Below, one piece after another: positions 16,160 through 61,426 of a stretch of DNA of 64,000 nucleotides. Both the position numbers and the translations under genes were made by a program. The notes under the pieces are model-generated. The model was not told the origin of the DNA. It did no database searches and saw only the letters and a program-made list of their open reading frames with translations. How positions within the stretch are numbered: the first letter of the stretch is position 1; every line of letters begins with the position of its first letter. Source of the stretch: an uncultured cyanobacterium (lineage in GTDB: Bacteria; Cyanobacteriota; Cyanobacteriia; PCC-9006; JAAUQQ01); contig OY970368.1 of NCBI GenBank assembly GCA_963718615.1, forward strand, positions 544,001-608,000, given 5' to 3'.

Positions 16160-17092
16160 ATGAACCTCTCCCAAATCCGCGCCGTGATTGCCGTCGCTGA
16201 GCAGAAAAACTTCAGCGCGGCTGCCCTGGAATTGGGTCTTTCGCAATCCGCAGTCAGCCACGCGATCGCCACTTTAGAACAGGAACTGGGTGTGACGTTG
16301 TTTAGTCGCGGTCGGTATGGAGCGGTGTTAACGCCAGCGGGCGATCGCATTGTTCAGCAAGCCCGCTTGGTCCTCAATCATTTAAATAACATGACCCTCG
16401 AAGCCTATAAACATCGAGGGTTGGAGGGTGGGGAGGTTCGTGTCGCCACCTTTCGCAGCGTTGCCACCCATCTGTTACCTCAGGTGATTGTCCAGTTTAA
16501 CCAGCAGTTCCCCGACATTACGGTCACGCTCATTGAGCGGGAACATTACATCGCGATCGAGCATTGTCTACGCCATGGAGAAGCTGATATTGGCTTTACC
16601 TATCACACCGCAGAAACGAACGATTTAGAAACTTTTGAAGTTATTCACGACGAATACCTTGCCCTTTTCCCACCGACAATTCAGGCTCCCCCGGAAAGAC
16701 TAACCTGGGAAGATTTTACAACGATGCCAATTTTACTGGTTCCTTGTTTACCCTGCGGAATCGGTCTGCATCAGCACCTCACGCAACATGCTCCGCAGTT
16801 AGCCACGAATAGTTCCATTCGAGAAGACTCGACTGCTGTTAGCATGATCCACCGAGGGCTCGCCATCGGCATTTTTCCTTGGCTGGCAGCAGAACCAATT
16901 CCCCCCGTAATTCACCGCCGTTCGCTTCCCGTCCCTCATAAGCGAGTCATCATTGCAGCCCGCGTAATCGATCGGCTTCATTCTCCTGCAGTTTTTGCCT
17001 TTTGGGAAGAATTGCAGCGTCATGCTCCGTTTCCCCATCGATTATTAGCATCCCAGGGCCCTATCGAACCTCATCCCATCAAACTAAATTGA
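16160..17092 (+). CDS. LysR family transcriptional regulator
   Basis: MNLSQIRAVIAVAEQKNFSAAALELGLSQSAVSHAIATLEQELGVTLFSR HTH; divergent from the GST gene; true start ATG 16160. Confidence 0.93.
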   Translation: MNLSQIRAVIAVAEQKNFSAAALELGLSQSAVSHAIATLEQELGVTLFSRGRYGAVLTPAGDRIVQQARLVLNHLNNMTLEAYKHRGLEGGEVRVATFRSVATHLLPQVIVQFNQQFPDITVTLIEREHYIAIEHCLRHGEADIGFTYHTAETNDLETFEVIHDEYLALFPPTIQAPPERLTWEDFTTMPILLVPCLPCGIGLHQHLTQHAPQLATNSSIREDSTAVSMIHRGLAIGIFPWLAAEPIPPVIHRRSLPVPHKRVIIAARVIDRLHSPAVFAFWEELQRHAPFPHRLLASQGPIEPHPIKLN

Positions 17093-18557
17093 AATCCTCT
17101 AGTCGAATTCGTTTGACTTGTCGAGCATATTTCCAGGTAAAATCAGGCCAGTTATTAATCACTTTACCCGATTCATTTTTGTACCAGCTTTGACAGCTAG
17201 AGCTCCACACCAGTCGCTGCATATCCTCTTGTAGCTTGGCGTTATGGTTGGCCATCACCTCTGACTTAACATCTAAATATTTTAGATTTTTTTGCTTGAT
17301 GAGCTGTAGCAATTGAACAATATAGTCAACCTGTTTTTCAATCATATAAACAATTGAACTATGCCCTAATCCCGTATTCGGCCCAAAGAGCAGAAAGAAA
17401 TTAGGAAAACCAGAAACCATCATGCCAAAATAAGCCTCTGGACCCATTTTCCAAGCCTGGGAAAGCATTTTTCCAGCCACCCCTTCTAGCTGGATGGGAT
17501 GCAAAAATGCATTAGATTTAAAGCCTGTACCAAAAATAATCACATCCACAGGATACTGCTTACCATCCGCTGTAATAATTTCCTTTGGAGTGACTTTGGC
17601 TATCCCATGACTAATGACCTCAACAGTTGGTCGGGCTAAAACTTCATAATAATCATTGGAAAGCAAGATCCGTTTACAGCCAACGGTATATTCGGGTAAT
17701 AACGAATCGTCAAGATTTACTTTTTTTAGTCGACTTAAGATTTTCTGAGTTAGCCTTTGCTGAAATAGTTTTCCGGAAAGCGTCCCCTGGAGAAAAACTC
17801 TAAATCGCATCTCTAAGGTCCAATAAATCCAAAAACGGCGCAGCGCTGGAGCCCAAGGAAAATGATGATTCAACCACTGCTCAACGGACGAGAAGTTATT
17901 GTTGCCTTTTGTCGCAACCCACTGGGGCGATCGCTGAAAAATATAGGTTTTAGCCGCTTTTTCCGCAACCGGGGGAACAAATTGAACGGCACTAGCCGCA
18001 TTACCCACCACAGCCACCGTTTTGCCCTGCAAATCACATTGATGATCCCAGCGCGCTGAATGAAACTGAGTTCCGGCAAATTGGTTCAATCCTTCGATGG
18101 CAGGTATGGAAGGATGATGCAGTTGTCCACAGGCCGAAACCAAAAACTTGGTGTAAAAGATTTGCCCCTGAGAGGTTATCACTTGCCATTGACCATCCGT
18201 CTCTTGAAAAACCGCTTGAGCAATTTCAGTTTTAAACTTGATATGGGCATAGAGCCCATATTTGCTGGCACAATGTTCCAAATACTCTAGAATTTCAGCC
18301 TGCTCGGCATAGCGAAATGACCAATCTTTCTTTTGCTCAAAGGAGTAGGAGTACAAAAAAGAAGGCACATCACAGGCAGAACCTGGATAATGATTATCTC
18401 GCCAAGTTCCTCCAACTCGGCTTTCCTTCTCGCAGATTATAAAATTATCGATCCCTGCTTGCTTCAGACGAATGCCCATGCATAAACCAGCAAACCCAGA
18501 ACCAATAACAACAGCATCTAGAGTACTGATTGAACTAGTAGAGTCATTAGAAATCAT
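17079..18557 (-). CDS. Type I Baeyer-Villiger-type flavin monooxygenase
   Basis: GSGFAG FAD motif, GGTWRDNHYPGSACD, fingerprint FAGTQFHSARWD (FxGxxxHxxxW), VGNAASA NADPH motif, GCKR. Confidence 0.9.
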   Translation of the reverse strand: MISNDSTSSISTLDAVVIGSGFAGLCMGIRLKQAGIDNFIICEKESRVGGTWRDNHYPGSACDVPSFLYSYSFEQKKDWSFRYAEQAEILEYLEHCASKYGLYAHIKFKTEIAQAVFQETDGQWQVITSQGQIFYTKFLVSACGQLHHPSIPAIEGLNQFAGTQFHSARWDHQCDLQGKTVAVVGNAASAVQFVPPVAEKAAKTYIFQRSPQWVATKGNNNFSSVEQWLNHHFPWAPALRRFWIYWTLEMRFRVFLQGTLSGKLFQQRLTQKILSRLKKVNLDDSLLPEYTVGCKRILLSNDYYEVLARPTVEVISHGIAKVTPKEIITADGKQYPVDVIIFGTGFKSNAFLHPIQLEGVAGKMLSQAWKMGPEAYFGMMVSGFPNFFLLFGPNTGLGHSSIVYMIEKQVDYIVQLLQLIKQKNLKYLDVKSEVMANHNAKLQEDMQRLVWSSSCQSWYKNESGKVINNWPDFTWKYARQVKRIRLEDFNLV

Positions 18558-18591
18558 GAATAAATATAGATCCTAGTAAAGATTTAGCGCG

Positions 18592-19488
18592 TCAATTCGA
18601 TGGATCAGAGGGAAACTCGGTCATCAACCAATCCACTAACAGCTTTTGGTATGTTTCTGTACATTCTGCAAAAAACATATGACCCACCCCCGGCAATAAC
18701 GTTAAGGTCGTATTCGGAACCTCCTGAGCGATCGCCAGGGCCTGTTGCATCGGGATAAGAGGGTCTTGCTCACCCGCAACAACAGCCAATGGGGCCTGAA
18801 TCTTTTGCAACAAAGGGCCAATATCCATCTCTCTCAGCCCCGCAAACAAATAGAGCAAATGATCTAAATTGTGCCGAGCTGCATCAAGTCGCATAGGCTC
18901 TAAGGTTTCTGACAAGACGGAAGCCTTAAAATAAGCACGACGGTTCGCTGCATTCAAGGCAGATGCAATTCGGTATCTGCGCGAATTAGAGGCACCAAAA
19001 CGGAGGATCCCCTTAAATAATAAACGACCCGGCAGAGGACCACAAGCTAGCTTTTGTAAAAAACCAAACAAGCCAGTCCAGGCTCCCTGATAAAACCCTG
19101 AAATGCAGAGGACAGAGCGAATTTGCTGGGGTCTCAGAGCTGCCAAAAGCAAGGCAGCAAAGGCTCCTGTAGAATGGCCCACGACCATAACGGGCTGATT
19201 ACCTACAAGCTGACCAATCGCCGTGCCTAAAACCTGTGCAAACATTTCCGGTGTCACACGGGCTGGGCCGAAGTCCTCGGGAGCGATCGCCGGAAAATGT
19301 CCAGGCAAACTCAGGGAGTACCAAGGATAGTTCTGCCGAATTTCTGCCGGTAGACTCGGGGGCCAAAAGTGGATCGAAGCCGTGATGCCATGTAAAAAAA
19401 TAATGGGAGGACCAGGCTTGCTGGGGTTGCCCGCGATCGCGACCAAGCGATGTTTTTCTACTTCCAACTCGATAAGATGCTGTTCCAT
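18592..19488 (-). CDS. Alpha/beta-fold hydrolase (esterase-like)
   Basis: FLHGI oxyanion motif, GHSTG nucleophile elbow, GEQD acid, GVGH His. Confidence 0.88.
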   Translation of the reverse strand: MEQHLIELEVEKHRLVAIAGNPSKPGPPIIFLHGITASIHFWPPSLPAEIRQNYPWYSLSLPGHFPAIAPEDFGPARVTPEMFAQVLGTAIGQLVGNQPVMVVGHSTGAFAALLLAALRPQQIRSVLCISGFYQGAWTGLFGFLQKLACGPLPGRLLFKGILRFGASNSRRYRIASALNAANRRAYFKASVLSETLEPMRLDAARHNLDHLLYLFAGLREMDIGPLLQKIQAPLAVVAGEQDPLIPMQQALAIAQEVPNTTLTLLPGVGHMFFAECTETYQKLLVDWLMTEFPSDPSN

Positions 19489-19548
19489 CGGGATTTAGTG
19501 CCAATCTAAGATAATAGAAAAACGCTCACGGATCCCTATTGTGAGACC

Positions 19549-21354
19549 CTATTGCTGATCGCTCAAATCCTGTTCAGATAGACCTAAGACGCTATTTCTA
19601 ATACCAAAAACATTGGTCGGATCGTTGGCATCTTTAAGCTTTTTGATCAAGCTTAAACTGGTCGGCGAGACCGTATCTTTTAGAAAATCCTTACGAAGCT
19701 TACCAACACCGTGGTGATGGGAAATAGAGCCCCCATTTTTTAGAATAGTTTGCCGCAGCGCATAGTGAATTTTATTCAGGATTTCTTCAGCATGGGGAAC
19801 ATCTTTGGCGTAGAAGCCATTCATAAAGTATATACAGACACCAGTATGATAGATTTGCGAAATTCGATAGGATAAAAACGGAGAACCCGGAAGATTGTGC
19901 TGTTGATGCTGCACTTGTAATTCTTCTCGGACCTGATGCACAACTTCATGAATCTTGCTCCAAGGAACTGTTGTTTCGAAGGTTTCACCTAGAATATGGA
20001 GCGAAGCTAGAAAGTCCCGAATATAGGCGATCGCAAACGTCAGATTGTATCCCCGTTTGCCATTAGTTGAACCACCGGAAACAGCTCCAAATTTTTTAGC
20101 CAGTTGATTAATACTTGTTTTTTGATACGCGACTTCTGGGGCAGTCCCCTCCATCACCAAGGTTGCTGCCACCATCTCACGCGGTTCAAACTTAAGAACA
20201 TCATGGAGATAGAAAAACTTTGCTTTATTCTTCCACTTTGCTTTAGGAGTTTCAGTTGATCTTAACGCTTGTCCAAACTGAAACTGTCCATTGTCAACCA
20301 GGCGAACACTGGCCGGTATAAAGTTAGTTTGTGACAGTTCTCGTAAAAACTCAACCCCTTTTGCTAAGGTGGGAAATACTAAGGAACCATAATGCTGAAC
20401 ATCGGGTAATCGATGGATTCGAATAATGGCTTTGGTGATGAGGCCCAAATTCCCTTCACTACCAAAGAGCAGTTGCTGCAATTGCATCCCCATCGACATA
20501 CGTGGACAAGCGATTTTTTGCTCAACCAGTCCCATAGGGGTAAGCAACGTAACACTCTCCACAACCTCTTCAATATTGCCATAGCGGTTTTTTTTCATGC
20601 CGCTAGCATTGGTCGAAATCCATCCCCCTAAGGTCGAGAGCTCTAGGCTATCGGGCTCATGACCACAGGTAAAACCTGCCTCTTTTAGGGTTTCTTCTAA
20701 CTGAGTTCCAGTAATCCCTGCTTGCACACAGGCTTGCATGTTTTTAGCATCAATCCATTCCACTTTATTCATTCTTTTGGTGTTGACGGCAACGATCATG
20801 CGCGTCTCCTCAGCGGGCAACATTAAAGCCCCACTGACACAGGTTCTGCCCCCAACGGGAACCAAACAGACATCAAACTGAAGCGCCAACTGAATCAATT
20901 GCTCGGCATCTGATTCTGATTCACAGAAAAAAACCATATCTACCCCACGGGGCAGTTGCTCAAAAAGCACTGGAAAAATTTCTTCCGCACCAGCTTGTCC
21001 GTGACTATGGCTCAGCCGCACAGAATCATCAAACGTGTAGGTATGCGGCGGAAAATGCTTTGCGATCGCCTCACAAAATCCTTCATTGCAGTGGGGAGGC
21101 GCGATGGGCTTCTCTTGCACCTCTGTCCGCAGGTCATTGAGATCCAAGGATACCCCTAGCCCCTTCTCTAGATAGGGCAAAAGATAGGGCATAGAATAGC
21201 CGCAAATCTGATAACGATCGCCAGTGAGGCTAACCTCACGCGTCTCAGGATTAACTACAAATTCCGTGTCTGAATATCCCCAACGATGCGACCAAAGCCC
21301 GCTGCCGTCCGACTGAGAGAGGTTTTCCATTTCCGAATTTTGAGTTTTGAACAT
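19549..21354 (-). CDS. Alkyldihydroxyacetonephosphate synthase (AGPS/ADHAPS)-like FAD oxidoreductase
   Basis: [112 protein letters not shown], all matching eukaryotic AGPS motifs. Confidence 0.9.
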   Translation of the reverse strand: [601 protein letters not shown]

Positions 21355-21544: not shown

Positions 21545-22207
21545 TCAACGAACCATGATTTTCTGCGAGCCCGTAAAGGTTCGATAGTGAGGCTGATCGG
21601 CGATCGCAAGCAACTCAGAGTCACCTTTGCTATCGCCATAGGCATAAAGATAATATTGCTGCAAATCACCTAACAAAGCTGTTAAACGAATAACCTTTTC
21701 TTTTCCATAACAACTATCTCCGAGCAGTTTTCCCGTGATTTTATCCTGTTCAACCGCGAGCTGAGTCGCAATGACATCGTTAATGCCGAGCCTTATTGCC
21801 CAAGGTCGAAGATAAACCTCTAAGTTTGCACTGACCACCACCACACGATGCCCTTGAGCTTGATGCCAAGCCAATCGCTCCATCGCCTGGGAATTGAGTA
21901 ATTTGGGCAATGTCACCTCAGAAAACTGAGCCGCCGCTGCTTGTAGGTCTGGCAATGACCAGCCTCGAAAATATTGGGTAACGAGGGTTTCTTTGATAAA
22001 GTGGTTTGAGCAACGACCTAAAACATAGGAAATCACGGCACGGCGTTTCTTCAACAAACCTTGACGCATTTTTTGGGCTGTACAAGCCGACTTCACAAAC
22101 GGTAAAAACGAGTCTTTCCGGGTCAATGTGCCATCAAAATCAAAGACCGCGATGGTCGGTCGCTGAACGAGATTCGACATGGAAATAGAAGGCGAAGAAT
22201 CTAGCAT
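21545..22207 (-). CDS. HAD-IB family phosphatase
   Basis: FDFDGTLT motif I, VVSA motif II, K..R, YGDSKGD motif IV; start possibly 22180. Confidence 0.9.
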   Translation of the reverse strand: MLDSSPSISMSNLVQRPTIAVFDFDGTLTRKDSFLPFVKSACTAQKMRQGLLKKRRAVISYVLGRCSNHFIKETLVTQYFRGWSLPDLQAAAAQFSEVTLPKLLNSQAMERLAWHQAQGHRVVVVSANLEVYLRPWAIRLGINDVIATQLAVEQDKITGKLLGDSCYGKEKVIRLTALLGDLQQYYLYAYGDSKGDSELLAIADQPHYRTFTGSQKIMVR

Positions 22208-22244
22208 GAACGGCTAGGGTAAAGAATTTTGTAGATTGTATAGC

Positions 22245-23036
22245 TTACAGGGTTTGGGCAAGCGGTAATGGCTGAGATGAAGTATCAGCATTCGCCATCT
22301 CCTCAATTCTAGAACGAATTTCGTCCACAATCTCGCGGCAGAGTCTTCGATTGCTCTCGACCTCCAATCTCGCTTGATAGGGCGCAATATCAATCGGACG
22401 ACCAAACTGAATACGAATAGGATGTCGTTTGGGAAAATGCGCCCCTTTAGGAAAAGCCTGAAAACTTCCTTCAATATGAACCGGTATAATTGAGACATTG
22501 AGCTGCATTGCCAAAAAACCAGTCCCGAGCTTAAACGGCTGTAGTTTCCCTGTTTTTGAGCGTGTCCCCTCCGGAAATAGCAAGATCATTTTATTTTGAG
22601 CGACAAGATCCTGACAAGACTTAAGCGCATCTGTCGAATGGCCCTGTCGCTGAAAGGGGATCATGTTTAAAACATGTTGGCAAATTTTCCCTTTGATAGG
22701 ATGATCAAAGAAATAATCCTTGGCTGCCAAGCTATAGACCTGATTCATATAGCGATTTGCTGCGGCAATAGTTGCTGGCCCATCCAAATGACTAGAATGG
22801 TTGGCCGCCAAGAGAACAGGTTGATCCTTAGGAAGGTTATCTAAACCTTCGATTTTAAGCTGAAACCACATGCGCAGAATAAACTGGCACATGTACCAAA
22901 TCAAAGCCTGTAGGACAGGATTAAGAATTCTTTGAAATAAGACAATACTTAATTTTTGATGAAGATTAGGAGCTAACCCAAAATTTGCCGAAAGCGTAGT
23001 CTTCAGGGGAACCATCAATTTTAAGGGAAGCATCAA
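22245..23036 (-). CDS. PlsC-family lysophospholipid / glycerone-phosphate acyltransferase
   Basis: ANHSSHLD (HxxxxD) and FPEGTRS motifs, IIPVHI, IQFGRPI. Confidence 0.9.
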   Translation of the reverse strand: MMLPLKLMVPLKTTLSANFGLAPNLHQKLSIVLFQRILNPVLQALIWYMCQFILRMWFQLKIEGLDNLPKDQPVLLAANHSSHLDGPATIAAANRYMNQVYSLAAKDYFFDHPIKGKICQHVLNMIPFQRQGHSTDALKSCQDLVAQNKMILLFPEGTRSKTGKLQPFKLGTGFLAMQLNVSIIPVHIEGSFQAFPKGAHFPKRHPIRIQFGRPIDIAPYQARLEVESNRRLCREIVDEIRSRIEEMANADTSSQPLPLAQTL

Positions 23037-23279: not shown

Positions 23280-24263
23280 TCAAGTCAAATTTTTTCTCAC
23301 CCAGTCGCCGGTTGTAGCCATTCCTTCTTCTAGATTAATTTGAGGCTGATACCCTAGCCGATGACGTGCTTTTTCGATCGAATAGGGATAACGTCGTGTA
23401 GAAATATCAATTGTGTCCGCAGTGGCTCCTATTTTGTTATTAGGAAAAAGTTTTAAGATTATTTTTGCCAGTATTGCAGGAGCTGAAGGGTATTTTGGTA
23501 AATTTTCGATTTTTGCGAGTCTTTGATAATAGTCTTTCCAAGTCGTTTCACAGCCATCGGTGATATTGAAGGCTTCACCATAGGCTTCCTGCTCAAGGGC
23601 AAGAAAGATAGCGTCCACTAAATTGTCCACATAGACGTGGTTCATGACGCCTCGACCATTATTGAGCAGGAAGAACTTACGCGATCGCATCATCTCCAAA
23701 GGACGAATCACCCAGGGCACAGAGCGAGGACCATAGACATCTCCCGCTCGGATGACAATGACCCCAAAGTCCGGTGGGTTGTTGAGGGCTAGAACTTGCT
23801 GATCAGATTCTAGTTTTGTGAGGCAGTAAGGATTTTTACCCTGATAAAACGGTCCAGACTCCGTTACATACTTGGGATATCGAACCCCATAAACCACCAC
23901 GCTAGAAAGCTGAACAAAGGCTTTAACCTTGGCCTGTTTTGCAGCATGGGCCATCGTTAAAGTGCCTTCTACATTCACTTTGCGGAACTCCGCTAGGTCC
24001 CCTTCTTCTTTTACGATCGCAGCCGTATGAATAACCAGATCTATATCCTTACAAGCCCTGTGGGCAATTTCTGGATCAGTCACGCTACCTGCGATCATTT
24101 CGATGCCAAGCCGTCCTGCCAAATCGCTGGTATCTGGCGATCGCTGTAGTCCTCTAACCTTGATGCCTCTGGCTACAGCCAACTCCGCAATTCGCTGTCC
24201 AATACAACCACCAATACCCGTAATCAACAGAGTTTTATGACTTAGGTCCATAAATAACCACAA
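23280..24263 (-). CDS. Extended SDR, NAD-dependent epimerase/dehydratase (3-beta-HSD-like) family
   Basis: ITGIGGCIG, HTAA, LSSV, YCLTK (YxxxK), VYGP, YVDNLV. Confidence 0.85.
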   Translation of the reverse strand: MWLFMDLSHKTLLITGIGGCIGQRIAELAVARGIKVRGLQRSPDTSDLAGRLGIEMIAGSVTDPEIAHRACKDIDLVIHTAAIVKEEGDLAEFRKVNVEGTLTMAHAAKQAKVKAFVQLSSVVVYGVRYPKYVTESGPFYQGKNPYCLTKLESDQQVLALNNPPDFGVIVIRAGDVYGPRSVPWVIRPLEMMRSRKFFLLNNGRGVMNHVYVDNLVDAIFLALEQEAYGEAFNITDGCETTWKDYYQRLAKIENLPKYPSAPAILAKIILKLFPNNKIGATADTIDISTRRYPYSIEKARHRLGYQPQINLEEGMATTGDWVRKNLT

Positions 24264-29780: not shown

Positions 29781-30083
29781 CAGTCACCAATCTTTAATTT
29801 TATGAATCCTTAACAGAGGCCCGAGCTGGTATGTACTTAACGTAAAGGGAAAAGCATTAGATCGGGATTTCCACTAGAATGATCTATGAATTGAACCATT
29901 CAATAATGCCACCATCAATCTCAATCCTACCTCAAAATCTTTGATTGGTTTATTTCAGTACATCCCGGTCTAATCAGGCGTTATCTGTAAACTTACACTT
30001 CTGACTAAAATACCGATCCTCTATGTTTCTGATTGAGAGACATATGCTGTTGGCCTGAGTCAGAAAGGAATACTTATTTAACT

Positions 30084-43614: not shown

Positions 43615-43668
43615 TGTATTTAGTAATTTAGAATCCGCAAAATGAGTTCGGAGCAATCGCGAATCCGG

Positions 43669-52211: not shown

Positions 52212-53939
52212 CTAGGCCACCTGAGAATTGAGGGGAAAAATCGTCGCTTCTGCCCCTTGAACCAAACTGTAAATCGTGCCGTCTTCGTCATGAACAGTAA
52301 TGTCAATGACCAACCGGGTTTCCGTTTTCGAGACCAGTTTGGTCGTGGTGTAGAACGGTTTGTCGTAGGGGGCGCTGGAAAAGTTTTCAAACCGAACAAT
52401 TTTGGCGGGCAAGCAAACGGAATTGTAAAAATGCCGCAGCCAAATCCAAACGGAATGGGTTTGAATATCGGAAATATAGGGATTAATCGTTTGAGCCGGA
52501 AACTGGCCTTGACCCCGAGGGCCAATGTCATGGGCAAAATACTCCGCCGTCACCTGCTGCTCATCGATATTGAGAATGCGCTGAAGCCCCTGGAAGCCGG
52601 AACCATGGAACAGGGGATTGGGCTCGACGGTATAAAAATCCTGACCCGTCATCGTAATGACATGGTCCGGCGTTAGGTTAAACTGCTCCAACTTGGGTGC
52701 CGCAGGAATCTCCCGCACCAGGGTAAAGCGATTGCTGAAGTGATAGCGGGGCTTGCCGTTGGGTCCCAGGCTCCAGACTTTGCCTTCCAAAACAATCTTT
52801 TCTTCGCTCTTGACCCTTTCCTGCAGGTCTAGCACATATTCATCCGCTAGATTTTCGTCAAAGACCACGCCCTTCAGGACCTTGACCTCCTCGCAAACAA
52901 AGCATTTGTAGCCGGGATAGAGCTGTTCGCCTGCATTGGCTAGCCAGGAAATCGAACAGGTAAAGGGCAAAACCGGCGTCCCAGAAATGACGTGATCCAG
53001 GAGAAAGGGATTCTCTTCCAGGCTCAGTCGTCGCCGTAGACGATGGGTCTTCAGCTCATCCGTGACCAGCGCCAACGGCGGATGAATCGGTCCACCTACA
53101 ACCACCTGGGCCACGCCATGATGACGGGGGTTGAGCTCGTTGACAAGCATATCCGTCGCTTCATCCACCGGCAGAATATCGATTTTGCGCAAGGCAAAGG
53201 CTTTTTTCAGCTCGGGCGTCACCATACCACTGTCCCAGGGACCCCAGTTGATCGCCACCACATGGCAGGTGGGATGCTGCTGCTTGATCAGCCAAGCGGC
53301 TTTGTTGAGGATTTCGTTGGAGAGGGTATAGTCCGACTGACCGGCGTTGCCATAAAACCCCGCCACGGATGAAAACAACACAAGATATTGGAGTTGACTG
53401 GGGGGAACGAGGGTGAGCAAATTCTCCAGTCCTTTAATTTTGGGACCGTAGACCCGCTCAAAATCCTGTTCGGTTTTCTTTTCGATCAGCTTATCGGCAA
53501 GGTTTCCCGCGCCATGGATAATGCCGTTGATCGGCCCAAATCGAGCCACCACGGGCGCTAGCTGGGTTTGGAGTACCGCCAAATCCGTCACATCGGCACT
53601 GAGATAAACCGCTTCGTTCCCTAGGGACGCCAGGGTGTCGAGGGTGTGTTTAATTTCGCGGTTGGAGAGGAGCGATCGATAAACCTGATTAATCGCCATG
53701 GGCGTGGGCTTTTCGCCGCGAGCGATAAAGTCCTGCATGATCCGCTGCTTGAGCTCGGGTTCCTCGGTGCAGCCTGCGGCCCAGACCGGTTCGGTTTCTG
53801 CGAGGTGCGATCGCCCCAACAAAATCCACTTACACTGCGCCGAACGCGCCACTTTCATCACACATTCAGCGGTGACCCCGCGAGCACCGCCACTCACCAG
53901 AAATACGGTAGAGGCAGGGACTTGAGCTGTAGTTACCAT
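52212..53939 (-). CDS. HglG-like KR-DH didomain
   Basis: VSGGARGVT, HGAGNLAD, FSSVAGFYGNAGQSDY, INWGPW; DH motif FLLDHVISGTPVLP. Confidence 0.9.
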   Translation of the reverse strand: MVTTAQVPASTVFLVSGGARGVTAECVMKVARSAQCKWILLGRSHLAETEPVWAAGCTEEPELKQRIMQDFIARGEKPTPMAINQVYRSLLSNREIKHTLDTLASLGNEAVYLSADVTDLAVLQTQLAPVVARFGPINGIIHGAGNLADKLIEKKTEQDFERVYGPKIKGLENLLTLVPPSQLQYLVLFSSVAGFYGNAGQSDYTLSNEILNKAAWLIKQQHPTCHVVAINWGPWDSGMVTPELKKAFALRKIDILPVDEATDMLVNELNPRHHGVAQVVVGGPIHPPLALVTDELKTHRLRRRLSLEENPFLLDHVISGTPVLPFTCSISWLANAGEQLYPGYKCFVCEEVKVLKGVVFDENLADEYVLDLQERVKSEEKIVLEGKVWSLGPNGKPRYHFSNRFTLVREIPAAPKLEQFNLTPDHVITMTGQDFYTVEPNPLFHGSGFQGLQRILNIDEQQVTAEYFAHDIGPRGQGQFPAQTINPYISDIQTHSVWIWLRHFYNSVCLPAKIVRFENFSSAPYDKPFYTTTKLVSKTETRLVIDITVHDEDGTIYSLVQGAEATIFPLNSQVA

Positions 53940-54002: not shown

Positions 54003-54773
54003 TCACTGGGCGAGGAAACCGCCATCCACCGCGAGGGTATGTCCGACCACGAAGGAAGACGCGTCGGAACACAGCCAGATCACCGCATTGGCAATTTCCG
54101 CCTGGGTTCCCAAACGCCCTGCGGGTACAAAGGCTTGGAGCCAGGTGTCAAACTGGGAGGTATGTCCGCCCAGATTATTCTCAATCATAGGGGTCTGAAC
54201 ATAGCCCGGACAGATGGCATTAATCCGGATCCCGGTCCTAGCATATTCGGCGGCAGCGGCTCTTGTCAGGCCAATGACGCCATGTTTACTGGTGACGTAG
54301 GCCATGTAGCCTTTCATGCCACTACTTAGACCATGCACGGAGGACATATTGACGATCGCCCCGCCCCCCTGCTCCCGCATAAACGGAATCGCATATTTCA
54401 TGCAGAGCCAAACCCCCTTGAGGTTGATGCCCATGACGCGGTCCCAGTTTTCTTCCGTGCAGGCGGAGGTGGAGGCGCGATCGCCTTCAATCCCAGCGTT
54501 ATTAAACAAACAATCGACAGCACCGAAAACTTCAACGGTCTTGCGGACCATGGCTCGGACTTCGGCGGCCTGGGAGACATCCGTTTGGATAAATAGCGCT
54601 TCGCCGCCCATCTGATGAATCTGATGGACCGTCTTCTCGCCGCCTTCCACAGCCACATCGGAAACCACAACCTTGGCACCCGCTTCGGCAAAGGCAAAGG
54701 CCGAGGCTTGGCCAATGCCTGAGCTACCACCCGTAACTAGGGCAACTTTTCCGTCAAGACGGGGGGTGATCAC
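54003..54773 (-). CDS. Classical SDR oxidoreductase inserted in the PKS operon
   Basis: TGGSSGIG, VVVSD (acidic residue suggests NAD(H)), FNNAG, YVTSKHG, ICPG, VDGG. Confidence 0.9.
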   Translation of the reverse strand: MITPRLDGKVALVTGGSSGIGQASAFAFAEAGAKVVVSDVAVEGGEKTVHQIHQMGGEALFIQTDVSQAAEVRAMVRKTVEVFGAVDCLFNNAGIEGDRASTSACTEENWDRVMGINLKGVWLCMKYAIPFMREQGGGAIVNMSSVHGLSSGMKGYMAYVTSKHGVIGLTRAAAAEYARTGIRINAICPGYVQTPMIENNLGGHTSQFDTWLQAFVPAGRLGTQAEIANAVIWLCSDASSFVVGHTLAVDGGFLAQ

Positions 54774-54938: not shown

Positions 54939-55012
54939 TTGGGTTTTCCCCATTCTGCTCTCAGATTGTAACCTGAGGCTCTGGGGAGAACTGAGGACCT
55001 AGACTCAACCGA

Positions 55013-58000
55013 CTAGGCTGCGACGAGGGTAACTCGCCCCTGTTGGCCATAGGCGGCTTCTGGCAACAAGCCATCGGAATCGTGGAGTTCCGCCAGGATG
55101 CAGGCAACGGACTGCTCCGGGGTCAACGCCGGGTTAAGGTCCACCGCTCGGCAGAAGACCGAGCGCCACTCATAGTTGAGAGTTTTGGTGAGTCCCATCA
55201 AGCCTGCGGCAATCGGGCTGTACGGGTCCTGTTGGCTTAGACCGAAGGCCCCATCCAGCCGAGCAACGCTGAGGAAGACGCTGCGACCCAGGGTGGCTGC
55301 TTGGTTCAGCGGCGCTTTGAGATGCTTGGCCAAGAAGAAGACCTGTTTCACCAAACTGGATTCTGCCTCCGAAAAGCTGAGCCCTTGGCCCGCCTGGACA
55401 AAGCCAGTGGGATGAAGGTGGAGGAACGCCGCAATCGACCCTTCTTGGGTGGCGATCGCCTCCAGTTGCTGACCAAGCGCCACATCACCAAGCTGCTCTA
55501 GAACCACCCGCTTAACGCCCTGGGGCAAGGGTGCTTGCTGGGGAACCAACCCAGCCGGGAAGCTTAGAACCACGACCTTCCAATTCCGCTGGGTTAATTG
55601 CTGAGCCAGTTGGGTCGTGGTGGCCGAACCATCGTCGGTCAGGAGGCAAATGTGGCCGGAGGGCAATTCAAAGTCCAGCCAATCGGCAGGGGGCAAGTAT
55701 TGCAGCTGGGCCGGATGCCGAGGCAGGGGCAGGGGGTCAAGAGCGACGGCAGCTTCTAGGGCTGCGATATCCCAAGTGGTGACCCCTCCTTGGATCCCCT
55801 CGTTAAGCGTAGGACTGGACTGCTTTTTTTTTTCGGCACCGGTTTGCAGCCGAGCCTGCATATAGTCCGCCACTTGGCCCAGGGTCCGCAGCTCAATTTC
55901 AGCTAGCTCTTCCAGATTTGGCTGGGGCAGCTCCGGAAAGGCCTCTTGGAGTGCTCCGAGAATTTCAACCCGCTTGATGGAGTCAATCCCCAAATCCGCT
56001 TCCATGTCCATGTCCAGCTCTAGCATCTCAGCGGGATAGCCAGTTTTGTCACTGACGACCGCTAGGAGTTGGGTCTGCATTTCGCCGGGGGCGATCGCGA
56101 CCACCGGTTCGCTAGGGACGGCTAGAGGAGCGATCGCCTCGCCTGCATTCACTAGACCTGAATTTACTAGACCTGAAGCCACCTGGCCTTTCGCTAACTG
56201 GGACTGCATATAGTCCGCCACTTGGCCCAGGGTCCGCAGCTCAATTTCAGCTAGCTCTTCCAAATTCGGCTGGGGCAATGCAGGGAAAGCCTCCTGGAGC
56301 GCACCAAGGATTTCAACCCGCTTGATGGAGTCAATCCCCAGATCCGCTTCCATGTCCATGTCCAGCTCTAGCATCTCGGCGGGATAGCCAGTTTTGTCGC
56401 TGACGACCTCCAGGAGTTGGGTCTGCATCTCAACCGAGCTCACGCTGGCCGGGGCCGTTGCGGGAACCGGGGCGACTGCTGGGATGACTGCTGGGATACC
56501 TGCCGGAGCCACTACCGGGGGGTCTAAAAGGGCCACGGTGGTGCTTGCTTGGGCCGTTGCCAAGGCCGGGGCCGCGACGGGTGCTATGGGTCTAGGCACC
56601 GGGGCAGAAACAGGAGTTGCGATGGACTGACTGGGCACGCCCAAAGACATAGCAGGGGTCGCCATCGGTGCCGGTGCCGTCCCAGACGCTGTCCCAGGCG
56701 CTGTCGGGAGAACCACTGCCGGGGTCACAGGCGCAGACCCGTTCCCCTTGCCCTTAGCCAACTGAGCTTGCATATAGTCCGCCACTTGGCCCAGGGTCCG
56801 CAGCTCAATTTCAGCCAGCTCTTCCAAATTCGGCTGAGGCAGTTCCGGAAAGGCTTCTTGGAGTGCTCCGAGAATTTCAACCCGCTTGATGGAGTCAATC
56901 CCCAGGTCTGCCTCCATGTCCATGTCTAGCTCCAGCATCTCGGCGGGATAGCCTGTCTTGTCGCTCACAACTTCGAGGAGCTTTTCCTGCATGACACCGC
57001 TGGCAACCGTTGGGGCGATCGCGGCTGTAGTCGCGACAGGCGAAGTTGCTACGGGCGAGGTCACCGCCATCGGGGTCGCAGCAACTGGAGTTACCGCAAT
57101 CGGAGCTGTCATCATTGGAGCTGCTATGGGAGCCGCAGCCAGTGCTTCACCCTTGAGCTTAGACTGCATATAGTCCGCCACTTGGCCCAGGGTCCGCAGT
57201 TCAATTTCAGCCAACTCTTCCAAATTCGGCTGGGGCAGTTCCGGAAAGGCGTCTTGGAGCGCTCCGAGAATCTCAACTCGCTTGATGGAGTCAATCCCCA
57301 GATCCGCTTCCATATCCATGTCCAGTTCCAACATTTCTACGGGATAGCCCGTTTTGTCGCTCACAACCTCAAGCAGCTTGGGGGCAAGGGCCAAAGCATT
57401 CGACCTTGAAGCAGGAGCCGGAGCGGGAACCGGAATGGGCTCTGGTTGGACAACCGGCTGGACAACTGGCTGGATAACCTTAGCAACCGGGACTTCCGGC
57501 ACAGGGGCAGCCTTGACCACTGGGTCGGCGGCAACCGCTACTGGCGGAGGGGTAACGGGGGCCACTGGAGCCGCTGGCTGTACGGGCTGTACGGGCTGGA
57601 CAGTGGTCGCTGATTGAACCGTTCCTCCACAGACCTGCTGGCCTAGGCCGCAAAGTTGCTTTGAGAACTCCATCTGCTGGAGTAAATACTGCTCATGGAC
57701 CCGCAAAGTTTCCTGCTGATAGCCATGGAACGCCGCTAAGTTGCGATCCGTGCTGGCCACTAAATCCGCCTGCTGGCCTGCTGCTTCCGTCAGCAAACGC
57801 TGTTGCTGTTGTGCAATTTGCCCAAAGGTCTGGGTGTATTCCCGATGGCCATCGAGATATTGCTCATGCACCTTCAAAATTTGATTTTGGTGCTGAGTGA
57901 ACTGAACCAGCAGATTTTCCAGACTCGTGAGGGCCGGATGCGGAGATTGGGCAGAATTTTGCATAACGGTTATCGGGGCGACATCAGTTTGAGCGGGGGG

Positions 58001-61000
58001 AGGCAGGGTGGCCTTTTGAGTCTGTCCAACAGAGGGTTGACCATTGATCTGGCCAATCGAAAGATTTTGCGCAGCGTGGCCGTTGGTTTTACCATTGACC
58101 ATCTTGCCGTTACCGCTGCCATTGCCATTGGCCTTGCCGTTGCCGTTGCCATTGGTCTTGCCATTGCCGTTGCCATTGCCATTGGTCTTGCCGTTGCCAT
58201 TCAGTGACCCATGACTGGATACACCAGGGCTAGATGCACCATGACTTGCACCCGGCTCAAGCGTGACCGGCGGTTCAGCCAAGAATCCATGCTTTTGGGC
58301 CACAGGCGACACCCCTGGACTCGCGATCGCCCCAGACTCAACGGCTGAACCAACCGCTGAAACGATAGTGGGAACAGACGACGAAACCGCAATCTTAACT
58401 TGGTGACCATCCTGAAGCGCCGCTTCAAAGGCATTCTGGGTTTTCTCGCTGACGTAGCTTGCCCCACTAATTTTCACCATTAGCTTCTTCGCCCGTTCAT
58501 CGGGCTCAGCCGGGACTGCAATGGGCAACTGATAGGGGTCAATATCTGCCAGCGATAACCCTGCCACTCGCAATTGCATCGCCGCTTCGCGTAATTGCAG
58601 ATCGCTGTCCTTATGGCGGCTGGCATTGGTTGCGATCGCCAAGTGGGGGCGATCGCCCAAGATTTCCTTCACCAAATTGGTCAGCGTATTCTTCGGACCA
58701 AATTCAACAAAACAAACGCCTCCGGCAGCATAGATGTTCTCAATTTGTTGTTTGAACTGAACCTGGCTCACCATATGTCGCTGGAGGAGCGTTTTCATCG
58801 CGCCAACCTCAGCGGGGTAGACCTGTCCGGTGACATTGGTATAAATCGGCGTGGTGGGTGTACCCAAGGCGACTTGATCGACAGCTTGACTAAAGGGCAC
58901 CTGGGCATGGGCCACTAGCGGGGTATGGAACGCCGCAGACACCCGCAGGGGAATCGGCTCAAACCCTCGGGCTTCGAGGGTGGTTTTGGCGGCGGCGATC
59001 GCCGCCGTTGATCCCGCCAGCACCACCTGCTGTCCAGAGTTAAAGTTGGCGATCGCCACCCCCTCCAGGGCATTGACAATCGACTCAATCACCGCCGCAT
59101 CGCCCTTGACCGCCAGCATCGTCCCGGCATCAAAATCCCGACCCGCCGGAGCCGCCATCGCCTGACCCCGTGCCTTGACCAAGAAGGCATAATCTTGATC
59201 CGTCAGCACACCGGCGGCCCACAGGGCCGTGAGTTCGCCAAAACTATGACCTGCCGTAAAGTTGGGCGCAAATCCCGCTTTCTGGAAAATCCGATAAAGC
59301 CCCGTGCTAAACGCACCAATGGCAGGCTGGGCATATTCGGTTCGCTGAAGCTTGCGCTTTTGCGCTTCTGCCGACGCGTCGTCAAAAACAGAGCGAGGAT
59401 AGACCACCTCAGAAATGGCGTCCAACCCATCAGCCCGTAGCAACTGATCAAACGGCTCATAGGCTTGCCGAGCTTCTGGGAAGTTCACCGCAAGGCTTTG
59501 TCCCATGTCGAGGTACTGCGCCCCTTGGCCCGCAAACAAGGCTACGACTTTGCCCTGGAGCGCTAAACCGGACTGACGGTAATAAATGCCCTGGGGATGT
59601 TCCCAAGCCTCCCGCTTTTGTTGATTCAGCAGATTGATGGCGACCTTGAGCTTGGCACAGGCATCTGCGCGGGAGCTAGCCACAAAACCCAATCGGGCTT
59701 CCGTCATGGGAATCACTTGGGTTTTGCAGGATTCTGCCAGGTCGGCATAGGCGCGATCGCCCCCCGCTTCAGCCTGCAAGGCCGAGAGCACCGCCTGACA
59801 CCGCTGCGTCAATGCCGCCGTATCAGCCGCCGCAAAGAGCAGCGATTGCGGCACCGAATGAATCCGATACGGAGCGGAATGTTCCGATTGATACTCTTCT
59901 AGGACGATGTGGAAATTAGTTCCACCAAATCCGAACGAACTGACCCCAGAACGACGTGGAATTTGCGCTTCTCGACGCATCCAGGGCCGCAATTTGGTGT
60001 TGAGGTAAAACGGAGAATCTTCAATGCCTAGCTTGGGGCTGGGCTGATTGATATTGATCGTGGGGGGAATCACCTTGTGATGCAGTGCCAACGCAGCCTT
60101 AATCAAGCTGGCTGCCCCCGCAGCGGTTTTGGTGTGACCAATTTGAGCCTTGACGCTCCCTAGGGCGATCGACTGCTTTTCGGCCTGGGTTTCTGCGAAG
60201 ACCACTTTCATGCCTTCAAACTCTGCCGGATCCCCAGCCATTGTGCCTGTACCGTGGGCTTCCACCAATCCCACCGTTGCGGGATCAATGTTGGCATCGG
60301 CATAGGCGCGACGCAGGGCCTTGACTTGGCCTTCTGGACGGGGGGCATAGATACTCTTGAAGCGGCCATCGCTGGAGGTCCCGAGACCCCGAATGACGGC
60401 GTAGATGCGATCGCCATCGCGCTCCGCATCCTCCAACCGCTTGAGCACCACCATGCCGACCCCTTCGCCCAGCATGATGCCATCGGATTCCGCATCAAAG
60501 GGACGAGATTCTTGTTTACGAGACAGGGCAGGCGTTTTGCTAAAGCAGAGATAGGTAAAGGCAGAGTTGTCCGGGTCTACCCCCCCCGTCAGCATCATGT
60601 CAGCACGATGCTCGACCAACTCACTAATGGCCATCTTCAGCGCCGCCAAAGAACTCGCACAGGCTGCATCCAACGTGCAGTTCAACCCCCCAAAGTCAAA
60701 ACGATTGGCAATTCTCCCGGAAATCACATTCGAGAGCATGCCAGGGAAGGAATTCTCTTGCCAACTGGGATAGGCCAGCTTGAGTTTCTCGATCAGCTTT
60801 TGCGTATCTTCATCGGACAGGCCGCTGCTCTTCAGCACCCGCTCCCAAATGGGATACTGCAAACGCCCCCACAACGGCCCACTCAACTGCCGCCCCACGG
60901 CCCCGAGCACGACCCCTGTCTTCTCATAATCCACATCAAGCTGAGCAGGGCCATAGCCCGAATCTTCCATCGCTTGACGGGCCACCGCTAGGGCCAAAAG

Positions 61001-61426
61001 TTGGGAGATATCGGTTGCCTCCAGAACATTGGGCGGCAAGCCAAACTCCATGGGGTTGAAATCAATCTCTGGGATAAAACCACCCCGTTTGCAATAGGTT
61101 TTATCAACGGCCCGAGGGTTGGGATCGTAGTAGTCCGAGCTATTCCAGCGGGACGCCGGTACCTCGGTAATACAATCCACCTCATTGAGAATATTTTCCC
61201 AATAGACTTGAGTATTTTCCGACTGTGGGAAAAGAGAAGCCATGCCAATAATTGCAATGGGCGTCTGACTCAAGCTAGGTTTACCCGCACTTAGACCAAC
61301 CATAGATTTCGTTGACTGATTCAACATTGTCTTCTTTTCCCTAATCATTTCTGAAACAGTCTGCTCAAAAGCATCTAAATCTTCTCGAAACTCATCTAAA
61401 GAGTTACGTATTTTGGAAGCAAACAT
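55013..61426 (-). CDS. HglE(+HglF)/PfaA-like iterative type I PKS: KS-MAT-ACPx4-structural KR subdomain
   Basis: KS LDAACASS, EAHGTGT, GHTKTAAG; malonyl-AT GHSFGE and SAAFHT; four ACPs with LGIDSIKRVEIL; C-terminal FFLAKHL, ARLDGAFG, GLTKTL..EW, CRAVDL. Confidence 0.95.
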   Translation of the reverse strand: MFASKIRNSLDEFREDLDAFEQTVSEMIREKKTMLNQSTKSMVGLSAGKPSLSQTPIAIIGMASLFPQSENTQVYWENILNEVDCITEVPASRWNSSDYYDPNPRAVDKTYCKRGGFIPEIDFNPMEFGLPPNVLEATDISQLLALAVARQAMEDSGYGPAQLDVDYEKTGVVLGAVGRQLSGPLWGRLQYPIWERVLKSSGLSDEDTQKLIEKLKLAYPSWQENSFPGMLSNVISGRIANRFDFGGLNCTLDAACASSLAALKMAISELVEHRADMMLTGGVDPDNSAFTYLCFSKTPALSRKQESRPFDAESDGIMLGEGVGMVVLKRLEDAERDGDRIYAVIRGLGTSSDGRFKSIYAPRPEGQVKALRRAYADANIDPATVGLVEAHGTGTMAGDPAEFEGMKVVFAETQAEKQSIALGSVKAQIGHTKTAAGAASLIKAALALHHKVIPPTININQPSPKLGIEDSPFYLNTKLRPWMRREAQIPRRSGVSSFGFGGTNFHIVLEEYQSEHSAPYRIHSVPQSLLFAAADTAALTQRCQAVLSALQAEAGGDRAYADLAESCKTQVIPMTEARLGFVASSRADACAKLKVAINLLNQQKREAWEHPQGIYYRQSGLALQGKVVALFAGQGAQYLDMGQSLAVNFPEARQAYEPFDQLLRADGLDAISEVVYPRSVFDDASAEAQKRKLQRTEYAQPAIGAFSTGLYRIFQKAGFAPNFTAGHSFGELTALWAAGVLTDQDYAFLVKARGQAMAAPAGRDFDAGTMLAVKGDAAVIESIVNALEGVAIANFNSGQQVVLAGSTAAIAAAKTTLEARGFEPIPLRVSAAFHTPLVAHAQVPFSQAVDQVALGTPTTPIYTNVTGQVYPAEVGAMKTLLQRHMVSQVQFKQQIENIYAAGGVCFVEFGPKNTLTNLVKEILGDRPHLAIATNASRHKDSDLQLREAAMQLRVAGLSLADIDPYQLPIAVPAEPDERAKKLMVKISGASYVSEKTQNAFEAALQDGHQVKIAVSSSVPTIVSAVGSAVESGAIASPGVSPVAQKHGFLAEPPVTLEPGASHGASSPGVSSHGSLNGNGKTNGNGNGNGKTNGNGNGKANGNGSGNGKMVNGKTNGHAAQNLSIGQINGQPSVGQTQKATLPPPAQTDVAPITVMQNSAQSPHPALTSLENLLVQFTQHQNQILKVHEQYLDGHREYTQTFGQIAQQQQRLLTEAAGQQADLVASTDRNLAAFHGYQQETLRVHEQYLLQQMEFSKQLCGLGQQVCGGTVQSATTVQPVQPVQPAAPVAPVTPPPVAVAADPVVKAAPVPEVPVAKVIQPVVQPVVQPEPIPVPAPAPASRSNALALAPKLLEVVSDKTGYPVEMLELDMDMEADLGIDSIKRVEILGALQDAFPELPQPNLEELAEIELRTLGQVADYMQSKLKGEALAAAPIAAPMMTAPIAVTPVAATPMAVTSPVATSPVATTAAIAPTVASGVMQEKLLEVVSDKTGYPAEMLELDMDMEADLGIDSIKRVEILGALQEAFPELPQPNLEELAEIELRTLGQVADYMQAQLAKGKGNGSAPVTPAVVLPTAPGTASGTAPAPMATPAMSLGVPSQSIATPVSAPVPRPIAPVAAPALATAQASTTVALLDPPVVAPAGIPAVIPAVAPVPATAPASVSSVEMQTQLLEVVSDKTGYPAEMLELDMDMEADLGIDSIKRVEILGALQEAFPALPQPNLEELAEIELRTLGQVADYMQSQLAKGQVASGLVNSGLVNAGEAIAPLAVPSEPVVAIAPGEMQTQLLAVVSDKTGYPAEMLELDMDMEADLGIDSIKRVEILGALQEAFPELPQPNLEELAEIELRTLGQVADYMQARLQTGAEKKKQSSPTLNEGIQGGVTTWDIAALEAAVALDPLPLPRHPAQLQYLPPADWLDFELPSGHICLLTDDGSATTTQLAQQLTQRNWKVVVLSFPAGLVPQQAPLPQGVKRVVLEQLGDVALGQQLEAIATQEGSIAAFLHLHPTGFVQAGQGLSFSEAESSLVKQVFFLAKHLKAPLNQAATLGRSVFLSVARLDGAFGLSQQDPYSPIAAGLMGLTKTLNYEWRSVFCRAVDLNPALTPEQSVACILAELHDSDGLLPEAAYGQQGRVTLVAA
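55856..57380 (-). repeat. Four near-identical ~220-bp ACP-coding repeats
   Basis: Units at about 57164-57380, 56768-56990, 56204-56430 and 55856-56080, separated by Ala/Pro/Thr/Val-rich linkers. Confidence 0.9.
58078..58210 (-). repeat. Low-complexity coding repeat (NGNGNGKT)n in the PKS post-AT linker
   Basis: ttgccgtt/ttgccatt repeats translating to NGNGKTNGNGNGNGKTNGNGNGKANGNGSGNGK. Confidence 0.85.

Follow-up and report, generated by a model that had tools for sequence, protein, structure and literature searches.

This analysis concerns a 64,000-nucleotide stretch of DNA from an uncultured cyanobacterium (positions 544001–608000 of contig OY970368.1; hereafter the window) and, within it, a block of 30 adjacent biosynthetic genes at positions 17079–61426. 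The block is best read as a single cluster, in which an ether-lipid cassette and a set of glycosylation, methylation and sulfation genes have been combined with an hgl-type (heterocyst glycolipid-type) island of a non-heterocystous lineage. As a whole, it probably makes one class of lipid, derived from a polyketide synthase (PKS) and then glycosylated, methylated and sulfated. There is about an even chance, judged from the genes, that the alkyl chain is ether-linked to glycerol through a PlsC-family acyltransferase, alkyl-dihydroxyacetone phosphate (DHAP) synthase (AGPS), a short-chain dehydrogenase/reductase (SDR) and a haloacid dehalogenase-type (HAD) phosphatase. More tentatively, and with somewhat less than even confidence, the product would be a seminolipid-like, multiply sulfated, methylated amino-glycosyl 1-O-(very-long-chain oxygenated alkyl)glycerol, with the PKS wired into the animal-type AGPS route. 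Every part of such a pathway is known, and it is the combination and the implied product that appear to be new.

The block covers 44,348 bases, 92% of them coding by the open reading frame (ORF) listing and the Pfam and NCBIfam scans, and it contains no housekeeping genes as ordinarily understood, in agreement with the earlier note on this DNA, which had described a contiguous block of about 44 kb and about 30 genes free of such interruptions. The gene inventory given there was also borne out by the scans, the third of its glycosyltransferases aside. The host genome (G000) is complete, with 6.1 Mb in one contig, so that the sequence and boundaries of the cluster are fully defined.

AGPS is best known from peroxisomes and represents a minor route in myxobacteria. 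By family and by catalytic residues, the 601-residue product of the gene at 19549–21354 (minus strand) is a genuine member of this family, as had been claimed. It matches PF01565 and PF02913 and aligns end to end with the guinea-pig enzyme (residues 23–587 against 94–656 of chain 4bby in the PDB, E = 2.2 × 10−144), keeping the tyrosine of CIYF (507), the HHH loop (546) and the arginine of ASVRLVDN, which is aligned to ASIRLMDN of the guinea-pig protein. These we take, from the literature on the guinea-pig enzyme, to be active-site residues; the CIYF position is also where 4bca, a variant chain among the matches listed, departs from 4bby. The gene stands in a minus-strand string, comprising in order a flavin monooxygenase (FMO), an alpha/beta hydrolase, AGPS, a HAD-IB phosphatase, PlsC, an epimerase-family SDR and the adenosine 5'-phosphosulfate (APS) kinase CysC. 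The phosphatase (21545–22207, minus) scores 152 bits against TIGR01490 (cut-off 98) and has the DFDGT form of the DxDGT motif, and the PlsC-family protein (22245–23036, minus; Pfam), a candidate DHAP acyltransferase, has HSSHLD (HX4D) and EGTR motifs.

The PKS genes lie in another minus-strand string, which starts at HglE, has intergenic gaps of 12–287 bp and encodes in order HglE, a FabG-like SDR, KR-DH, KS-CLF-AT, PfaD, an acyl carrier protein (ACP), a thioester reductase (TR) and a further SDR, followed in the same direction by a GT2-like membrane protein, the sulfotransferase ST3b, the methyltransferases TylF and MT11, and the sulfotransferase ST3a. The HglE/PfaA-like subunit (55013–61426, minus; 2137 aa) contains by Pfam a ketosynthase (KS; active-site Cys in AACAS at 254), an acyltransferase (AT; GHSFG), four ACPs (DSI at 1379, 1511, 1699 and 1815) and a C-terminal region preceding the ketoreductase (KR). 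It is 72% identical to its counterpart in G404 (= G401), the metagenome-assembled genome (MAG) Synechococcales cyanobacterium CRU_2_2 of the same family (f1), and 60% identical to HglE of the canonical island in G020, a complete genome of another family. KR and the PKS-type dehydratase (DH), the C-terminal part of PfaA, form a protein of their own (52212–53939, minus; Pfam) that matches positions 1992–2573 of the 2582 of NCBIfam omega_3_PfaA. The subunit combining KS, chain-length factor (CLF) and AT (47459–52141, minus; Pfam) corresponds in gene order to separate KS and CLF-AT genes in G020. The PfaD-family enoyl reductase (ER; 45764–47410, minus) scores 650 bits against TIGR02814 (cut-off 449) and is single-copy, with one match in an own-genome search, and the stand-alone ACP (45129–45476, minus) matches PF00550. 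A FabA-type dehydratase/isomerase domain was matched in none of the PKS proteins by Pfam, only the PKS-type DH, so that a saturated, oxygenated chain is to be expected, as in the heterocyst glycolipid synthases, and not a polyunsaturated fatty acid; membership among the polyunsaturated fatty acid (Pfa) synthases, for which PfaD would speak, was therefore rejected.

Chain release is presumed, by analogy with HglB, to fall to the HglB-like TR (43669–45114, minus), which would yield an alcohol. It scores 355 bits against TIGR01746 (cut-off 213), carries GATGYLG and YxxxK motifs, and is about 51% identical to the ACP-TR of the G020 island. The classical SDR after it (SDR299; 42757–43656, minus; Pfam) occupies the same place in canonical hgl islands, with a weak homologue at this position in G020 (37% over 128 residues) and a 50% identical one in the island of G496.

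The relationship to hgl islands extends beyond the PKS core. The canonical-looking island of G020, whose genes were named by position and description in 10.1101/489914 and which serves as proxy for the Anabaena island, has collinear HglE, KR-DH, KS, CLF-AT, ER and ACP-TR that are 50–62% identical to those in the window, and, on its other side, an HlyD-type protein, an FtsX permease, a 334-aa epimerase, a GT2/GT21 and a GT4 (421 aa). Eight ORFs of the window have homologues there (HglE, KR-DH, KS-CLF-AT, PfaD, ACP, TR, SDR and an HgdA-like protein), which, with G020 as proxy, places the window within the definition of an hgl island as given in the main text of PMC11804610, namely at least seven homologues of Anabaena hgl-island genes. 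Outside the heterocytous clade, according to the same main text, 35 of 2,279 cyanobacteria have such islands, which invariably lack hglT and whose products are called 'enigmatic'; the words 'ether' and 'sulfo' are absent from that text, and the present genome may be among the 35. The window, too, contains neither an hglT-type GT4 nor hgdB/hgdC, and the best G000 matches of the GT4, HlyD-like and FtsX-like proteins of G020 lie outside it. Because the cluster is without an hglT-type GT4, the C1 alcohol needs another fate, and the ether reading fits since AGPS consumes exactly the hydroxyl that the missing enzyme would have used.

The strongest sign that these genes belong together comes from G404. 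No fewer than 27 of the 30 cluster proteins are matched on one 61.9-kb contig of this MAG (4.5–48.2 kb, 56–86% identity), the exceptions being the FMO, the alpha/beta hydrolase and the sulfotransferase ST1, which have no counterpart on that contig. The co-occurrence of PKS and AGPS in another genome, on which the earlier note had made its proposal depend, is thus found. The internal order is shuffled, with the HAD phosphatase and the HgdA-like gene inside the same-strand string that starts at HglE, and the cluster has other neighbours, with CobS, patatin and FUR to one side and DnaB to the other; since 27 genes nonetheless recur together despite rearrangement, the block behaves as a unit. The G404 cluster also has an extra SulP/STAS sulfate permease (contig C212, 21377–22903, minus), after HAD and SDR, which the window does not have. 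The DnaB helicase gene beside it carries an intein (L019:9695–11689, minus). In a third genome, G402, of the same genus as G404, the PKS with its FabG-like insert is on one contig and a fragment of AGPS ends another, and in the sister genus g157 the searches detected AGPS in 0 of 5 genomes and KR-DH and ST3b in 0 of 4 each, these MAGs being 62–88% complete. A scan of the genome collection returned one locus only, that of the CRU_2_2 MAG.

Beyond this family AGPS is rare in the class and widely scattered. In an even sample it was found in 5 of 401 Cyanobacteriia, hgl-type KR-DH in 44 of the 401, and in an even sample of the phylum a further 29 genomes are AGPS-positive, all outside the class of the window and at 28–46% identity; among 80 relatives it is confined to two g156 genomes. 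The protein database holds 57–60% identical homologues in named cyanobacteria (Merismopedia, Nostoc DedSLP04, Planktothrix mougeotii and others), as well as in Acidobacteriota and Anaerolineae. A metagenome scan with the single AGPS protein gave no match, and one that used an aligned set of close homologues brought up 25 loci (37–60% identity), none of the 69–73% relatives among them; in three of the 25 (L039–L041) the gene immediately after AGPS encodes an SDR. In a FastTree phylogeny of 59 sequences picked from 120 listed, plus genome-derived ones, the clade of the window AGPS (SH-like support 1.0) is sister to that of a cyanobacterial genome designated G526 (0.986).

Where the neighbourhood can be read, AGPS keeps particular company. 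In each of the four genomes with readable flanks (G000, G404, G526 and G575), the gene immediately upstream of AGPS, or of HAD-AGPS, is PlsC, and the PlsC-HAD-AGPS order of the window is repeated in G526 (contig C62, 27.2–37.6 kb), where these genes are divergent from one for a 1697-aa FAAL-ACAD-ACP-TR protein (L022:12219–17312, minus), whose reductase domain is 50% identical to the window TR, and where AGPS is followed by a DegT aminotransferase. The G526 locus is a different candidate ether-lipid cluster. Among the long AGPS homologues (n = 80), a PlsC-family domain (PF01553) is also present in 76, and PF01553 together with NAD_binding_4 in 65 by hand count; the named ones are from diatoms, dinoflagellates and one prasinophyte, and many have DegT as well. 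Fusion and neighbourhood thus tie AGPS, PlsC and a reductase together in unrelated lineages, as the textbook route of fatty acyl-CoA reductase (FAR), GNPAT and AGPS predicts. DegT, beside AGPS in G526 and fused to it in the algal proteins, hints at amino-modified ether lipids. On contig C52 of G575, a gene of the fatty-acid-desaturase family (L025:3031–3972, plus) lies 0.8 kb downstream of PlsC-AGPS, after Uma2.

The sugar and glycosylation genes form a plus-strand string that begins 396 bp from the AGPS string and converges on the PKS string. Its first four genes, for a cytidylyltransferase, an SDR epimerase/dehydratase and a 3-C-methyltransferase with its paralogue, are followed by those for GT1, PIG-L, GT2/GT21, a 253-aa protein, a major facilitator superfamily (MFS) transporter and a Sulfotransfer_1 protein. 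The glucose-1-phosphate cytidylyltransferase (25383–26234, plus) scores 378 bits against TIGR02623 (cut-off 300). The extended SDR of the sugar-nucleotide epimerase/dehydratase type (26158–27180, plus; Pfam) matches PDB 6vo6 (E = 4 × 10−32), and the CDP-glucose 4,6-dehydratase family is not among the NCBIfam matches listed for it. The next gene encodes an NDP-hexose 3-C-methyltransferase of the TylC3/TcaB9/KijD1 type (27238–28467, plus; Methyltransf_13 and Methyltransf_14; PDB 4rv9, E = 2.1 × 10−84), and its paralogue without the Zn domain (28554–29780, plus; Pfam) is 78% identical in G404. The GT1 glycosyltransferase (30033–31379, plus; Pfam) is of the macrolide/rifamycin/sterol type, with NCBIfam Rgt and MGT matches below the cut-off. 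Beside it are the PIG-L family de-N-acetylase (31479–32270, plus; Pfam; 70% identity in G404) and the membrane GT2/GT21 glycosyltransferase (32422–33681, plus; Pfam), which has an HpnI-like and ceramide-glucosyltransferase-like architecture (HpnI 84 bits, below the cut-off of 310) and is 34% identical to the GT2/GT21 of the G020 hgl island. PIG-L adjoins GT2 in both G000 and G404, and by analogy with HpnI/HpnK and glycosylphosphatidylinositol synthesis the pair suggests that N-acetylglucosamine is added and then de-N-acetylated. An assignment of the window GT2 as the hglT orthologue was rejected, for the G020 GT2/GT21 is better matched elsewhere in G000 and the GT4 is unmatched in the window. 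The third glycosyltransferase-like protein, a membrane protein of 438 aa (41353–42669, minus; 56% identity in G404), has no Pfam or NCBIfam match and is placed near GT2 only by its nearest protein-atlas clusters, all GT2/GT21 and to be taken as a lead, and by weak tblastn matches. Two further methyltransferases, the TylF-family O-methyltransferase (39387–40139, minus; Pfam) and the class I S-adenosylmethionine-dependent MT11 (Methyltransf_11; 38496–39308, minus; Pfam), are 77% and 81% identical in G404.

Sulfation is represented by three candidate transferases and a supply gene. ST3b (40177–41295, minus) and ST3a (37232–38338, minus) both belong to Sulfotransfer_3 (PF13469), are 73% and 65% identical in G404, respectively, and possess, besides the family domain of sulfotransferases dependent on 3'-phosphoadenosine 5'-phosphosulfate (PAPS), the 5'-phosphosulfate-binding loop in the form RSGTT; the best solved relatives of ST3b are stand-alone sulfotransferases (PDB 2zq5 and 2z6v, E about 10−8). 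ST1 (Sulfotransfer_1; 36238–37158, plus) resembles hydroxysteroid and alcohol sulfotransferases (PDB 4ifb and 1j99, E about 10−8 to 10−9); it matches PF00685 from profile position 53 onward, its PAPS loop is a variant, and it has no match on the G404 contig. CysC (24459–24986, minus; Pfam) is 82% identical in G404, where it stands beside PlsC-AGPS. In an own-genome search it was the one match and hence the sole APS kinase of the genome, so that all PAPS-dependent sulfation of the organism hangs on this one cluster gene. Outside the window, at about 5,658,800–5,663,300 of G000, a GT2/GT21 homologue (37% identical to the island GT2 of G020) and two Sulfotransfer_3 genes lie a few kilobases apart and may constitute a locus for a sulfated glycan or glycolipid.

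Export may fall to the MFS transporter (34907–36094, plus; Pfam; 64% identity in G404) and to the 253-aa protein next to it (33975–34736, plus), the two being adjacent in G404 as well. The latter, conserved and without a Pfam match, is predicted to fold as a galactose-mutarotase-like beta-sandwich: its AF2 model has a pLDDT of 95.6 and Foldseek places it near mutarotases and HI1317 (TM 0.55–0.59). At least 626 uncharacterised homologues exist, the named ones in Pontiella, Pontiellaceae, Verrucomicrobia, Chloroflexi and Planctomycetota, and the metagenomic record P0124 joins the C-terminus of an MFS protein and the 253-aa protein in one ORF.

Taken together, these genes permit a hypothetical route to be drawn. 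HglE (KS-AT-4ACP), KR-DH, KS-CLF-AT and the PfaD-type ER would build a saturated, oxygenated very-long acyl chain on the ACP, to judge from the heterocyst glycolipid synthases, and TR would free it as a primary alcohol by HglB-type chemistry. PlsC would make acyl-DHAP, on which AGPS would exchange the acyl group for the PKS alcohol, its predicted substrate, to give 1-O-alkyl-DHAP. The ketone would then be reduced by an SDR, for which the cluster offers three candidates, the FabG-like insert first and SDR299 and the HgdA-like protein as alternatives. The FabG-like classical SDR (54003–54773, minus; Pfam and NCBIfam; 82–83% identity in G404 and G402), encoded between HglE and KR-DH, is preferred as the putative acyl/alkyl-DHAP reductase because, among the islands compared, it is restricted to the clusters of family f1 (present in 3 of 3, and in 0 of the 4 islands of G020, G413, G496 and G156). 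HAD-IB phosphatase would release free 1-O-alkylglycerol, to which the GT2/PIG-L pair would add an amino sugar and de-N-acetylate it, and GT1 a 3-C-methyl hexose derived from CDP-glucose. Methylation would follow by TylF and MT11, sulfation by two or three of the PAPS-dependent sulfotransferases, and export by the MFS transporter together with the mutarotase-fold protein.

Several observations weigh against this route. AGPS would have to accept a C24–C32 alcohol of the 1,3-diol type; it lies 22 kb from TR, in a separate transcription unit, and the genome contains a second full-length NAD_binding_4 protein, an A-T-R enzyme, 4.7 Mb away. The gene at 23280–24263 (minus; Pfam, NAD-dependent epimerase/dehydratase family), which the earlier note had put forward as the NAD-dependent reductase of the ketone step, turns out to be an hgl-island gene: it shares 53% identity over 327 aa with the G020 epimerase from the HlyD-FtsX-epimerase triad (hgdB/hgdC/hgdA), is the only strong match of that epimerase in G000, and as an HgdA homologue is not a specific candidate for alkyl-DHAP reduction. 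Nor can CysC be regarded as dedicated to the cluster; the genome has at least 10 Sulfotransfer_3 matches, at least 8 of them outside the window, and the kinase must serve these as well, so that its position is weak evidence. G496 has AGPS at a contig end and an hgl-type PKS on a different contig, and the search of that genome brought up no strong TR; in G575 the strong reductase and AGPS are on different contigs; and the 25 metagenomic AGPS loci, mostly non-cyanobacterial, are without the PlsC/HAD arrangement. Furthermore, all recurrences of the cluster fall in one family and are not independent, amounting to one or two evolutionary observations rather than three. The earlier proposal of a pathway from PKS alcohol through a glycerol ether to glycosylation and sulfation is partly supported and, at about even odds, is the best reading; it holds as regards its genes, their coherence as a unit and the AGPS residues, and is to be corrected in its choice of reductase.

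The main rival reading is that the block makes two products, the PKS alcohol being glycosylated directly on its hydroxyls, then methylated and sulfated, and PlsC-HAD-AGPS making ordinary alkylglycerol or ether phospholipids from some other alcohol, an arrangement that we consider rather unlikely. It has a precedent in two non-heterocystous strains with hgl islands, which according to the main text of PMC11804610 make tetracosane-1,3-diol and its glycosides, and it would account for the placing of sulfotransferases and methyltransferases in the PKS string with AGPS in a separate, oppositely placed operon. AGPS cassettes without an hgl PKS do exist, in G526 and G575 (no KR-DH match in either), and the distant A-T-R enzyme is a second TR-type reductase in the genome. 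On the other hand, the window contains no hglT-type GT4, and the PKS-terminal TR is the sole reductase near AGPS in it. The AGPS cassette has been kept in the cluster through rearrangement, with HAD even within the PKS string in G404, and AGPS, KR-DH and ST3b are jointly missing in the sister genus.

Alternatively, the block could be a mosaic, in which the middle part (25–41 kb), flanked by chance by an hgl island and an ether-lipid operon, is devoted to a sulfated and methylated glycan or polysaccharide of the cell surface, in the manner of exopolysaccharide loci rich in sulfotransferases. Base composition is uneven in a way that would suit this explanation: GC is 0.53–0.58 in the PKS genes, as in the flanks, and 0.38–0.56 in the tailoring and AGPS genes, mostly 0.40–0.52, with 0.38–0.52 in the tailoring genes. 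CysC as a shared resource and the Sulfotransfer_3 matches outside the window, with a GT2 homologue at the 5.66-Mb locus, point the same way. However, no Wzx-, Wzy-, Wza- or Wzc-type, ABC or polymerase family was found by Pfam among the 30 proteins, GT1 is of the type that acts on small lipophilic acceptors, and the same gene set stays with PKS and AGPS in G404 although its order is shuffled, all of which makes a mosaic improbable. That sulfation is merely transient, with a sulfotransferase activating a hydroxyl of the chain and the hydrolase eliminating the sulfate to leave an alkene, as in CurM and the olefin synthases, and an unsulfated ether or glycolipid as product, is very improbable, for although ST3b is weakly similar to the CurM sulfotransferase (E = 5.8 × 10−4) and an alpha/beta hydrolase is at hand, this similarity is marginal beside that to 2zq5 and 2z6v, the hydrolase is not conserved in G404, and three sulfotransferases together with the G404 sulfate permease suggest stoichiometric sulfation.

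The remaining genes of the block lie at its AGPS end. The FMO (17079–18557, minus; Pfam and NCBIfam) is of the type I Baeyer-Villiger kind and carries what we take to be both fingerprints of Baeyer-Villiger monooxygenases, and the alpha/beta hydrolase (18592–19488, minus; Pfam) has a GHSTG motif; a keto group in the chain may be their substrate. FMO was found in none of five other AGPS-bearing or related genomes, and the pair is absent from the G404 cluster and from four other AGPS-bearing genomes. The left flank consists of LysR, glutathione S-transferase and RTX genes, the RTX-repeat protein at 14231–15163 being ordinary and outside the cluster, as is the tRNA-Cys (GCA) at 5540–5611, the only hit of the Rfam and tRNA scans. 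On the right, the roughly 1.6 kb preceding HglE (61427–63060) contain neither an ORF of at least 100 aa nor an Rfam match, and may be a long regulatory region.

If the single-product, ether-linked reading is true, the cluster would be the first AGPS pathway fed by a PKS, demonstrating that a polyketide synthase can feed AGPS, and would specify the first sulfoglyco-ether lipid from a bacterium. One of the hgl islands outside the heterocyst formers, termed 'enigmatic' in the main text of PMC11804610, would in addition acquire a function, with a concrete and testable product class. Ether-linked very-long-chain lipids are chemically stable, and the product could thus be a new biomarker as well as a new class of amphiphile. 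Our literature search, like the earlier note, found no characterised equivalent and, in the library searched, no paper on the combination of hgl-type PKS, AGPS, sugar and sulfation genes; a 2026 paper states, in the part available, that only few products of secondary lipid synthases are known.

Compared with known systems, the cluster is closest in its core to the hgl islands, with which it shares the collinear PKS, the HgdA homologue (53% identity), a GT2/GT21-type glycosyltransferase and, as in the non-heterocystous islands, the absence of hglT. Unlike the canonical island, it has no hgdB/hgdC exporter, an MFS transporter standing in its place, and it adds AGPS-PlsC-HAD, the FabG-like insert, a CDP-sugar 3-C-methyl pathway, PIG-L, four methyltransferases, three sulfotransferases and CysC. 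With the peroxisomal and myxobacterial route of GNPAT, FAR, AGPS and alkyl-DHAP reductase it has in common a full-length AGPS, a PlsC-family acyltransferase and an NAD_binding_4 reductase. Here, in contrast, an iterative PKS and TR would supply the alcohol instead of a fatty acyl-CoA reductase, the HAD phosphatase suggests that alkylglycerol is set free and glycosylated rather than built into a phospholipid, and the window contains no PEDS1/CarF-type desaturase. The Myxococcus elbB–elbE cluster (ElbD), as described in the available part of 10.64898/2026.06.23.733905, where AGPS figures solely as a stand-alone marker next to elb clusters, likewise is a bacterial alkyl ether-lipid cluster coupling a reductase domain with an acyltransferase. 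Membership in the elb type was rejected, since Pfam detected no AMP-binding domain in the 30 proteins and none of them is built like the multidomain ElbD; the ether bond in the present case would be made by AGPS. As for the product, seminolipid and the archaeal sulfated glycosyl diether lipids offer an analogy at the level of the lipid alone, within the class of sulfated glycosyl alkylglycerols, from which the predicted lipid would stand apart by its PKS-made, very long and oxygenated alkyl chain and by its amino sugar and C-methyl hexose.

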